From a virus (taxonomy: Duplodnaviria > Heunggongvirae > Uroviricota > Caudoviricetes), in the IMG/VR virus record IMGVR_UViG_2718218100_000001: a stretch of 64,000 nt of DNA. One strand, given 5' to 3'. Made by a program: the position numbers. Below, in pieces: positions 3,001-6,000 of the stretch. Within the stretch, counting starts at the first letter, position 1, and every line of letters begins with the position of its first letter.

Positions 3001-6000
3001 AGGCTGGCAGAGACAATCCGCAGCAATCAGGCCGGAGATTTTGAGTTTAAGTCAAAGCCGTCATATTTAGTTCTATCATTTGCTGAAATATCATCTGTAG
3101 TCTTTATCCTAATGTCTGTCTATATGGTGGCAAAAAGTCAAAATAGCAATGGATTACAGTATGATGCGCTTTTTATACCATCAATGGCCTTTTCAATATT
3201 AGTGTTTTCGTTTAATGGTGGTATTATTTCAAAAATAATATCAAATAAAGTTATGATACTTTTAGGTGATGCTTCTTTTTCATTTTACTTGGTCCATACT
3301 ATAGTAATCAGTACATTGAGCAAGTTCTTTAATGTTTCTGGTCTTGGTGCTATAAGTGTAATTAAATTTATAGTAATGGCTCTGTTTGCTTCATTATTTA
3401 TATCAATAATGATGTATTTGTTTTTTGAAAAGCCAATAAACAATAAGCTAAGAAAATGGTGGAGTGGATTTAAGAATGATGTTTCAACCACTCGAGTTGA
3501 AAAAATAGAAGGCAATCAATTATAGCAATTAAAGTATGATAAGCATTTATGATTGGTTTTAATGAAATGCATATGTAGTTAACATATAATAATTGCATTT
3601 TGTTATTGTTGATGGTTTCTTGGTGTAAGAAATCCTGAGAAGTGAAAAGCTTTGATATATGTGCAAGGCTTTTCTTTTTTATAAGAATCGTTGTAATAAC
3701 TACTCCACCTTCCCATCAAGCCAGTCCGCCCACCACTGCATCATTTCTCTGCGCTTATCGAGATACTGAGCATGGTTGTAAATCCCACGCACAGATCCGC
3801 CGTTGGCATGTGCTAGTTGCACTTCAATAGCGTCAGCAGGCCATTCGTGCTCGTTCATAATCGTGCTGAATTCATGCCTGAATCCGTGACCGCTTTCCAG
3901 ACCTTCATAGCCGATTTGTTTGATCACAAGCAGTACAGCGTTCTCACAGATTGACTTCTTCTTATCGTTGCGCCCGGCAAAAACAAACTCTGATACTGGT
4001 TTAGTGATGGAGCTTAGCGTAGTGAGAAGTTCAACAACCTGGTCCGACATCGGAACCACATGAATCTTGCGTCCCTTCATCACACTGGCCTCGATGGTGA
4101 TAATCCTGTTTTCAAAATCGACGTTCTTCCATTGCATGGAACGAAGCTCTTTCGTTCTTAGTGCTGTGTAGCGTAAAACTTTGGTCGCAATGAGAGATAC
4201 GATACTTCCTGAAAATGTTGCAAGTGCTTTGTTGAATGCCGGGATCTGGTCGGCAGGTAAAAACGGGAAGTTCTTCTTGCGGTATCCCTTCATGGCTTCA
4301 GCAAGGTCAGGTGCCGGGTTATATTTAGCCCTTCCGGTGACAATAGCGTAACGGAAAACCTCGCCGCATCTTCTGCGTGCTTTGTTGGCTCGCTCCATTG
4401 CCCCGCGATCTTCAAATCTGCGGATTACTTCCAGCAGTTGCATCGGCTCAATATCCTGAATTTCAAGGCCGCCGATGATAGGTAAAATGTCGTCATCAAA
4501 CATTTTTGCAAGTTCAGTCGCATAGGCGGCTGACCAGACTTGCCTCTTATGCTCGTACCATTCCTTGTAAATCGCACTAAAGGAATTGTTGTTAGACGAA
4601 GCCTTTTTCGCCTTTACCGGATCGATGCCAACCGAGATGTCTTTCCTCGCAGTCCATGCTTTATCCCTTGCCTCTTGCAAAGTCATAAGCGGATATTTTC
4701 CGACGGTCAGGATTTTCTCCTTACCGTCAATCTTGTAGCGAAGCTGCCATACCTTTTTCCCTGATACAGGGACATAAAGGTACAGGCCATTACCATCGAG
4801 TAGGCGGTATGGTTTTTCTTTCGGCTTTGCTGCTTCAATCTGCTTAACGGTGAGCATGGGTAAAAATCCGGTGGGTAAAATTATTTTATCCACTTTTTAC
4901 CCGTCATGGCGTGCGGCTGTCAACGATCTGACGCGAACCATGACGAACTGTGAATCTACGGAAGGCTTGATATTCAGGGGATTTTGCGGACTGGTACGGA
5001 TGGAGGCGAACTGATAAATGGTGTCCCCTGCAGGAATCGAACCTGCAATTAGCCCTTAGGAGGGGCTCGTTATATCCATTTAACTAAGAGGACGTTGTTG
5101 CGTATTGATTTTGGTTGTTCACCATATGACTGATAATACCGTCTTTATGGTTTTAAAATCAAGGTGTAAGTTCGTTTTTGTTCATGGTTGATTATCTTCT
5201 TTTGCGTTGAAAAGTGTTTTGTTCACTTGCTAATGCGTACATATTGAGTACAGAATACATTATAAACTTGTGTACAGGATATAAAGCATTGGCACTGAGT
5301 GACACCAAACTACGAGGCCTATACGGAAAACCCTACTCTGGCCCTGCTGAAATCACCGATGGTGACGGGTTAAGTGTGCGGATTACTCCAGCAGGAACTA
5401 TCACGTTTCAGTACCGTTATCGCTGGAATGGTAAGCCAGTACGTCTTACTGTCGGGCGCTATCCGTCCACTTCACTGAAGGACGCACGTGTTATCGTCGG
5501 TGAGATGCGCGCATTGTACATGAAGGGAGTTAACCCTAAAAATTATTTTGCCCCCAGTGATGGCGAATTGACATTAAAAGAATGCTTGGATCAGTGGTGG
5601 GATAAGTATGTTAGCGGCCTGAAACCCAATACTCAGACGCTTTATAGATCTGTTGTGTACAACACCATGTACACACAGTTTGAAGACTCGCCAGTTGCCG
5701 GTATCCCTGTATTGGCCTGGGCTCGCTTTTTTGACAAACAAGAAAGCCTCAACAAGAAAAAGGCTCGTGTTCTGTTGTTACAACTGCGTTCAGTTATTAA
5801 CTGGTGTATCAGCCGCCAGTTAATCCCATCATGCGAATTACTCAAACTCAGTGTAAAGAATATTGGGAAGAAACCAGATGTGGGGAGTCGCGTACTTACC
5901 TATACGGAACTGGCAAAGATCTGGCTGGCACTGGAGAACTCAAAAGTGGTTACTTCCAACAAGCTGTTACATCAATTGCTATTGCTATGGGGGGCTAGGC

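Follow-up and report, generated by a model that had tools for sequence, protein, structure and literature searches.

The window considered here is a 64,000-nucleotide (nt) stretch of DNA from IMG/VR virus record IMGVR_UViG_2718218100_000001 (Caudoviricetes). It contains a short-tailed lambdoid prophage of the phi24B type that converts its host to production of Shiga toxin (Stx) 1a and is integrated at argW, a tRNA-Arg(CCT) gene of Escherichia coli. argW is an intact 75-nt gene on the minus strand at 5019-5093 (ARAGORN; Rfam tRNA, 63.4 bits). It equals K-12 argW in sequence, is identical at 75/75 positions to the gene in thousands of E. coli genomes, and is the sole tRNA that ARAGORN and Rfam call over the 64-kb window. 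On its 3' side lies intS (annotated at 3700-4857, minus strand), the integrase gene of a KplE1/CPS-53-like element. On its 5' side lies int, the integrase gene of the prophage (5289-6458, plus strand), which starts with TTG at 5289, is directed away from argW, and encodes a phi24B-type tyrosine integrase with Pfam Arm-DNA-bind_3 and Phage_integrase domains. The prophage itself occupies 5094-62968 (57.9 kb; empty-site alignment and the annotation of a near-identical prophage in strain 644-PT8), and beyond its far end is the annotated host gene yfdC (63068-64000, minus strand), which flanks argW on its native side.

The prophage is bounded by two copies of the 5' end of argW. A repeat finder returns a two-copy direct repeat at 5067-5093 and 62966-62992 that is identical at 26 of 27 positions, and within it TTATATCCATTTAACTAAGAGGAC forms an exact 24-bp block at 5070-5093 and 62969-62992. 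A count over the whole window gives these two copies of the block and none further. Position 25 of the repeat is mismatched, with C in argW and T in the other copy, and positions 26-27 are identical again. Because argW is on the minus strand, the 24-bp block corresponds to tRNA nucleotides 1-24, which run from the acceptor 5' strand through positions 8-9 into the D arm as far as nt 24. The number of exact 24-mer repeats expected by chance in 64 kb is about 7e-6, estimated here as (64000^2/2)/4^24. The first copy (5070-5093) is the attachment (att) core at the int-side junction, where the phi24B "Int F" primer maps. The second copy (62969-62992) is a displaced 5' fragment of argW with native upstream DNA attached. 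A second tRNA gene at 62969-62992 is ruled out, since ARAGORN and Rfam call argW alone, and the displaced fragment and the adjoining att arm (P') contain no credible Rfam family at E <= 1.

Unoccupied loci for comparison are provided by K-12 MG1655 and O157:H7 86-24. In the alignment of both empty sites to the window, the sequence ending at 5093 runs directly into the sequence beginning at 62993, with one 24-bp copy. The breakpoints are 5093/5094 and 62968/62969, and the DNA between them is the insertion. The single copy in the empty sites means that the repeat is not a native duplication and that the second copy is not part of another tRNA. The identity block starts exactly at tRNA position +1, so that the mature argW sequence is preserved, and the native 75 bp between the yfdC stop (63068) and argW +1 are now joined to the 24-nt fragment instead of the gene. 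A preliminary description of the window, made from the sequence by itself, had claimed that the bounding repeat equals the 5' rather than the usual 3' end of argW, that the complete tRNA is contiguous with the int side, that a displaced 5' fragment sits by yfdC, and that phage DNA replaces the native region upstream of the intact gene. The repeat and the empty-site alignment bear out this structural interpretation, and they place the displaced fragment 75 bp from the yfdC stop with its native upstream DNA kept. The same description had named alignment with an empty locus as the check on the junctions, and K-12 and 86-24 confirm them; the repeat proves neither part of a longer native duplication nor derived in its second copy from a different tRNA.

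The att sites and integrase of the prophage are those of phi24B. When both prophage ends are joined, the resulting putative attP (800 bp) aligns over its full length, at 94.6-98.3% identity, with contiguous sequence in 11 phage records, including vB_EcoS_P27, Stx2 phage 86, and Lyz12581Vzw. At the DNA level, the int-side arm shows 99.8-100% identity to phi24B, AU5Stx1, AU6Stx1, and SH2026Stx1, with the phi24B record (HM208303) at 99.8% over the arm and the 5' part of int. The integrase (Int) protein is 97.2-99.7% identical in amino acids to Int of AU5Stx1, PA8, and phage 86. In phi24B, int is inverted relative to lambda, starts with TTG, is expressed from the constitutive pInt, and is accompanied by a separate excisionase, Xis (Fogg et al. 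2011, PMC3064807). The phi24B system uses a 24-bp crossover site and an attP of 350-427 bp, is independent of integration host factor, and recognizes an attB of 62-93 bp composed of a 49-bp B arm, the 24-bp core, and a 20-bp B' arm (Mohaisen et al. 2020, PMC7581858). Recombination at exactly this 24-bp core has been shown experimentally (PMC7581858). The window phage shares with phi24B its integrase group, crossover site, attP arms, and host site, as well as the inverted int with a TTG start and the downstream excisionase gene. The latter (6442-6624, minus strand) overlaps the 3' end of int on the opposite strand, matches the HTH_17 domain, and is annotated as xis in AU5Stx1. The two phages differ in their toxin: the window phage carries stx1a, and phi24B carries stx2a.

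Published phi24B primers for attP, attB, and Int map exactly on both junctions of the window. The Int F primer, TTATATCCATTTAACTAAG, falls within the core at 5070-5088 and 62969-62987. The attP427 construct, which recombines, corresponds to 62753-62992 plus 5094-5280, and attP350, which extends on the int side only to 5248, gave no recombination in the published assays. The shorter attP237 (ending at 5174) and attP140 (ending at 5143) also fail to recombine. The attB110 construct, which recombines, corresponds to 5021-5093 plus 62993-63029 and thus to 49 + 24 + 37 bp of the window, with argW nt 25-73 making up the 49 bp. By inference from the construct sizes, the published 49-bp B arm of phi24B is this same segment. 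That phi24B attB1 is essentially argW explains why the published attB is unusually long and asymmetric, in that the tRNA gene body makes up its 49-bp arm. The words tRNA, argW, and intS are absent from both phi24B papers (PMC3064807 and PMC7581858), which neither identify the site with a tRNA 5' end nor mention a promoter for a tRNA.

The int-side arm also contains three conserved TGTAC(A/T/G)C repeats directly upstream of int (5232-5278), which emerge from the alignment of 21 int-tRNA spacers described below. TGTAC-type motifs are kept in other genera and in Pantoea phage AH07, and a GTGAAC motif is conserved in the same arm. The TGTAC repeats and GTGAAC are likely Int arm-type sites or elements of pInt, judging from their position and conservation. 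The failure of attP350 fits its lack of the outermost TGTAC repeat. These candidate arm sites are not described in PMC3064807 or PMC7581858. Two further candidate arm sites of the TGTAC(A/T/G)C type are present in the opposite attP arm (P') at 62897-62925.

Integration into the 5' part of a tRNA gene is a known but rare class. It is "considerably less frequent" than integration into the 3' part (PMC6563490, citing Zhao and Williams 2002, J Bacteriol 184:859, and archaeal cases), and the Islander algorithm explicitly permits upstream 5' fragments (PMC4383910). The window prophage belongs to this class: its repeat matches the tRNA gene from the 5' end, and upstream, still joined to native flanking DNA, is the displaced fragment. 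As in the known 5'-part integrators, which involve other organisms and integrases, the 5' fragment has been displaced to an upstream position, and the rebuilt gene is preceded by DNA that the element supplies. The usual arrangement, with a repeat of the tRNA 3' end, is absent from the Stx1 prophage and present in the neighboring intS element.

The intS element is an 8.5-kb relative of KplE1/CPS-53, whose 16-nt core is the 3'-terminal argW sequence CTGCAGGGGACACCAT (PMC2951348). The IntS-TorI system of KplE1/CPS-53 targets the same tRNA gene, has its integrase gene beside the tRNA, and has an attL that overlaps the int promoter (PMC2951348); it uses the 3' end of argW in the usual orientation, whereas the Stx1 prophage uses the 5' end. 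The preliminary description had also placed an intS element on the 3' side of argW and integrase genes of two different elements on its two flanks, and both statements hold. A displaced argW 3' fragment, TGGTGTCC-CTGCAGGAATCGAA, is present in 644-PT8 at 16468-16489 of the fetched locus, about 3.5 kb left of the window start. IntS and the phage Int, both tyrosine integrases, are unrelated, with 29% identity over 93 N-terminal amino acids. Since both ends of argW have been used by two elements, ancestral chromosome is certain only for about nt 25-52. The displaced 3' fragment in 644-PT8 has a 1-nt deletion in a CCCC run, which resembles the small deletions reported for displaced fragments of tRNA genes in PMC4383910.

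The phage DNA that now precedes argW contains a candidate sigma-70 promoter on the minus strand, facing the tRNA gene (5133-5162; consensus scan and conservation). Its -35 element is TTGATT (5162-5157), its spacer is 18 nt, and its -10 element is TATTAT (5138-5133), which ends 39 nt before tRNA +1. Transcription is predicted from the sequence to start near 5126 and would give a leader of about 32 nt. A nearer promoter picked by eye, TTATCA-N17-CAAAAT, was dropped because it is not conserved in the spacer alignment.

Related integrases carry the same arrangement across the Enterobacterales. A scan with the Int protein, limited to one genome per species, returned 33 loci, and integrases 68-90% identical to that of the window occur in about 20 other Enterobacterales species. 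Wherever Int is at least about 68% identical and enough flanking sequence is available (20 of 20 loci), a divergent tRNA-Arg(CCT) gene lies with its 5' end about 195 bp from the int start. These loci come from Erwinia, Enterobacter, Pantoea, Brenneria, Xenorhabdus, Providencia, Tatumella, Salmonella, Morganella, Proteus, Rosenbergiella, Rouxiella, and Limnobaculum. In the same scan, loci with Int at 64% identity or less have no tRNA.

The alignment of 21 spacers shows that most columns have diverged and that one block, cTTGat-N18-cGgTAnnAT, is conserved. The pattern TTGNNN-N18-TANNNT, directed toward the tRNA and 39 nt from +1 (38 nt in one case), is found in all 21 spacers, against a mean of 2.9 of 21 in shuffled sequences. 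TTG, G-14, T-12, A-11, and T-7 are invariant, and the mean information content is 1.86 bits at the key positions and 0.62 bits elsewhere. In the attP of the free Pantoea phage AH07 (Int 82% identical), TTGTAA-N18-TAGGAT precedes 22 nt from the 5' end of the tRNA, which brings TTGnnn-N18-TAnnAT facing the tRNA to 22 of 22 sequences. Because the conserved bases are the sigma-70 contact positions and both orientation and distance are fixed, the block is read as a promoter for argW that is borne by the element. The phage element thus appears to replace the argW promoter. The discriminator of the phage promoter is A-rich in nearly all species, which hints at a different growth-rate or stringent control.

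The native upstream region of argW (62993-63067, minus strand) is identical to the upstream DNA of K-12 and 86-24 and now lies apart from the gene. It contains a candidate promoter, recognized by eye on the minus strand, with TTACCC (63032-63027), a 17-nt spacer, and TATACT (63009-63004). The candidate has a GC-rich discriminator, CATGCCGC, ends 11 nt before +1, and is now aimed into the prophage end; it matches the consensus at 8 of 12 positions, which is below the threshold of the scanner. Farther along the same strand, a GC-rich hairpin at 62853-62880 is followed by UUCUUUACU, and the segment 62835-62992 folds with -30.6 kcal/mol (z = -2.7). A terminator scanner reported no intrinsic terminator near either junction, and this hairpin, with its 10-nt loop, falls outside the rules of the scanner. 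From its structure, the hairpin may stop transcripts from the native promoter after about 150 nt, or transcription across attP in the free phage.

Taken together, these observations very probably reflect integration of a phi24B-type Stx1a phage through a core that equals argW nt 1-24, with a phage promoter that most likely transcribes argW. Insertion would proceed by site-specific recombination, catalyzed by the tyrosine integrase, between phage attP and host attB, which would share the 24-bp crossover. As the phage copy covers the 5' and not the 3' end of the gene, integration would rebuild an unchanged tRNA gene on the int side. All DNA upstream of +1 in the rebuilt argW would come from the phage, and the first 24 nt, together with the native promoter region, would be left by yfdC at the far end of the prophage. 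In the lysogen, argW would most likely be transcribed from TTGATT-N18-TATTAT as a precursor whose leader is trimmed by RNase P. Expression of argW would be kept in this way, from a phage promoter in place of the native one with its GC-rich discriminator. The IntS element would make independent use of the argW 3' end.

Several points weigh against this account. The window motif matches the consensus at 9 of 12 positions and, taken alone, is not significant, with 3 such sites found and 1.4 expected; its 18-nt spacer is suboptimal. The argW promoter is thus suggested by comparative conservation together with the 9/12 match, and the DNA of the motif is also the P arm of attP, so that some of the conservation could serve assembly of the intasome. 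Since the two copies do not differ, the crossover point cannot be placed within the 24 bp. The left end of the intS element is outside the window and was read from 644-PT8, which is 99.6% identical and is not the source strain.

One alternative accepts the same integration and takes TTG-N18-TAnnAT as attP architecture, with sites for Int, Xis, or host factors, or as the promoter of a phage-specific transcript, so that argW would be expressed by other means. It draws on the location of the conserved block within the P arm that recombination requires in published assays, where attP237 and attP140 fail, and on the other conserved motifs of that arm (the TGTAC repeats and GTGAAC), which resemble protein-binding sites. 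However, the conserved bases are exactly the sigma-70 contacts TTG, G-14, T-12, A-11, A-8, and T-7, the bases between them vary freely, the motif always faces the tRNA at a fixed distance from +1, and the stretch from the block to the tRNA shows no other apparent promoter. This explanation is accordingly considered improbable. Slightly less probable again is that argW is silenced or strongly reduced in lysogens, and that this is tolerated because tRNA-Arg(CCU) is dispensable, which would make the 5' orientation a tolerated accident. AGG can also be read by tRNA-Arg(UCU) from argU, and the native upstream region is indeed detached from argW. Against silencing stand the clear purifying selection on the promoter motif across about 20 species, the identity block that begins at tRNA +1 and preserves the mature sequence, and the AGG use of the prophage (5.95 per 1000 codons), which points to a phage interest in the argW tRNA.

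The proposal that the 24-bp repeat arose by chance or by native duplication, and that the prophage entered through homologous recombination or transposition, has almost no probability. Some 7e-6 such repeats are expected, each empty site has just one copy, free phages carry attP as an uninterrupted sequence, and recombination at this core has been demonstrated (PMC7581858). The empty-site alignment, the copy number, the contiguous attP, and the mapping of the published primers rule out a chance match or native duplication.

The element, its integrase, the 24-bp core, and the argW site are established and were already characterized before this analysis. Two links seem not to have been made in the searchable literature: that phi24B attB1 is essentially argW entered from its 5' end, and that an Enterobacterales-wide integrase clade carries a conserved promoter directed toward tRNA-Arg. 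In that literature no argW promoter and no use of the 5' end were found, a result that does not prove absence. A working promoter would mean that an AGG-decoding tRNA is expressed from phage DNA in every argW-type Stx lysogen (about 4% of complete E. coli genomes), and would make phi24B a tractable model for tRNA integration of the rare reversed class. The AGG frequency of the prophage is several-fold above the E. coli average. An AGG-rich prophage plausibly benefits from argW expression.

A more far-reaching and rather unlikely possibility is that phi24B-type phages take over control of the rare-codon tRNA-Arg(CCU), which would uncouple AGG decoding from host growth control in favor of AGG-rich phage genes, and that the orphaned native promoter makes a chimeric RNA of about 150 nt. 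Under such a take-over, a native promoter, whose discriminator is GC-rich as in promoters that react to the stringent response, would have been exchanged for a phage promoter with an A-rich discriminator. The chimeric RNA would consist of the tRNA 5' fragment and the P' arm and would end at the 62853-62880 hairpin. If true, the take-over would mean that a toxin-converting prophage can alter host translation in a new way.

argW is a recognized integration site in E. coli strains that produce Shiga toxin (STEC). STEC genomics names the site argW and treats it as a standard site of Stx2a phages (PMC8309913, PMC9997748, PMC8767318). The Stx2a prophages of O157:H7 clade 8 (TW14359) and O121:H19 share the yfdC-argW-intS locus, the integrase, and the phage end with the window prophage, and differ from it in toxin, which is Stx2a in those prophages and Stx1a in the window. 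The published junction primer argW-inR maps to 62799-62820 of the window. The argW-int junction is present in 225 of 5426 complete E. coli genomes, and away from argW the int-side sequence hardly ever occurs (5428 places in 5425 genomes). One O157 survey found nearly all of its Stx1a phages at yehV (PMC8309913), and Stx1 phages with the Int described here are already in GenBank (AU5Stx1, AU6Stx1, and SH2026Stx1).

The toxin genes of the prophage are stxA1a (24422-25369) and stxB1a (25379-25648), both on the plus strand. Their products score 728.9 bits (cut-off 718) and 209.4 bits (cut-off 204.3) against the NCBIfam models for the Stx1a A and B subunits. The small RNA STnc100 (Rfam, 195 bits) is directly downstream of stxB1 at 25727-25940 on the plus strand. 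Stx2 phages such as 933W carry the tRNA genes ileZ-argN-argO upstream of stx. ARAGORN over the window found no phage-borne tRNA genes upstream of stx1.

The nearest complete genome is that of O157 strain 644-PT8, which is 100% identical around argW. Its prophage is annotated with int, xis, exo/bet/gam, N, a cI-like repressor, cII, O, P, Q, stx1a, and lysis genes, as well as with a portal protein, an N4-gp56-type capsid protein, and a giant LPD38 protein. The gene order, including the morphogenesis genes and stx1a downstream of Q, is lambdoid (644-PT8 annotation and NCBIfam). The window phage differs from this closest complete relative in its immunity region and in an insertion of the insertion sequence (IS) family IS66. 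The immunity and early segment (11461-15220), with N, a cI-like S24 repressor, and the cro/cII side, is not alignable to the 644-PT8 prophage, and its flanks are more than 99.6% identical, a pattern that indicates a mosaic swap. No complete genome fully matched the window immunity region, with the best coverage at 91-94%. A lambda CIII thermoregulator element (Rfam, 88.5 bits) lies at 11356-11414 on the minus strand.

The IS66-family insertion (46675-49115, 2.4 kb) lies in the tail/late region and is absent from the otherwise 99.9%-identical 644-PT8 prophage. Domain matches identify open reading frames (ORFs) on the minus strand for a transposase (46712-48250), TnpB (48300-48647), and a helix-turn-helix protein (48644-49045). 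The insertion interrupts this region and may affect particle formation. Just past xis is an IS3-family transposase remnant (6989-7348), followed by a truncated ead/Ea22-like gene (7392-8333), and both are also partial in the 644-PT8 annotation. The IS66 insertion and the IS3 remnant may or may not impair induction, excision, or particle formation.

Repeats of three further kinds occur within the prophage. Two tandem 39-bp units beginning CATCCCTCAAAACGAGGGA lie at 15661-15738 within a replication O-like gene and resemble the iterons of lambdoid origins. The hexamer TATTTC is repeated in tandem about 14 times at 21868-21963, between a 590-amino-acid minus-strand ORF and the ninG-side genes. Collagen-like Gly-X-Y coding repeats with a GGnCCn periodicity extend over 41920-42610 inside the tail-fibre ORF (40953-42848), which is divided into partial pieces in the 644-PT8 annotation.

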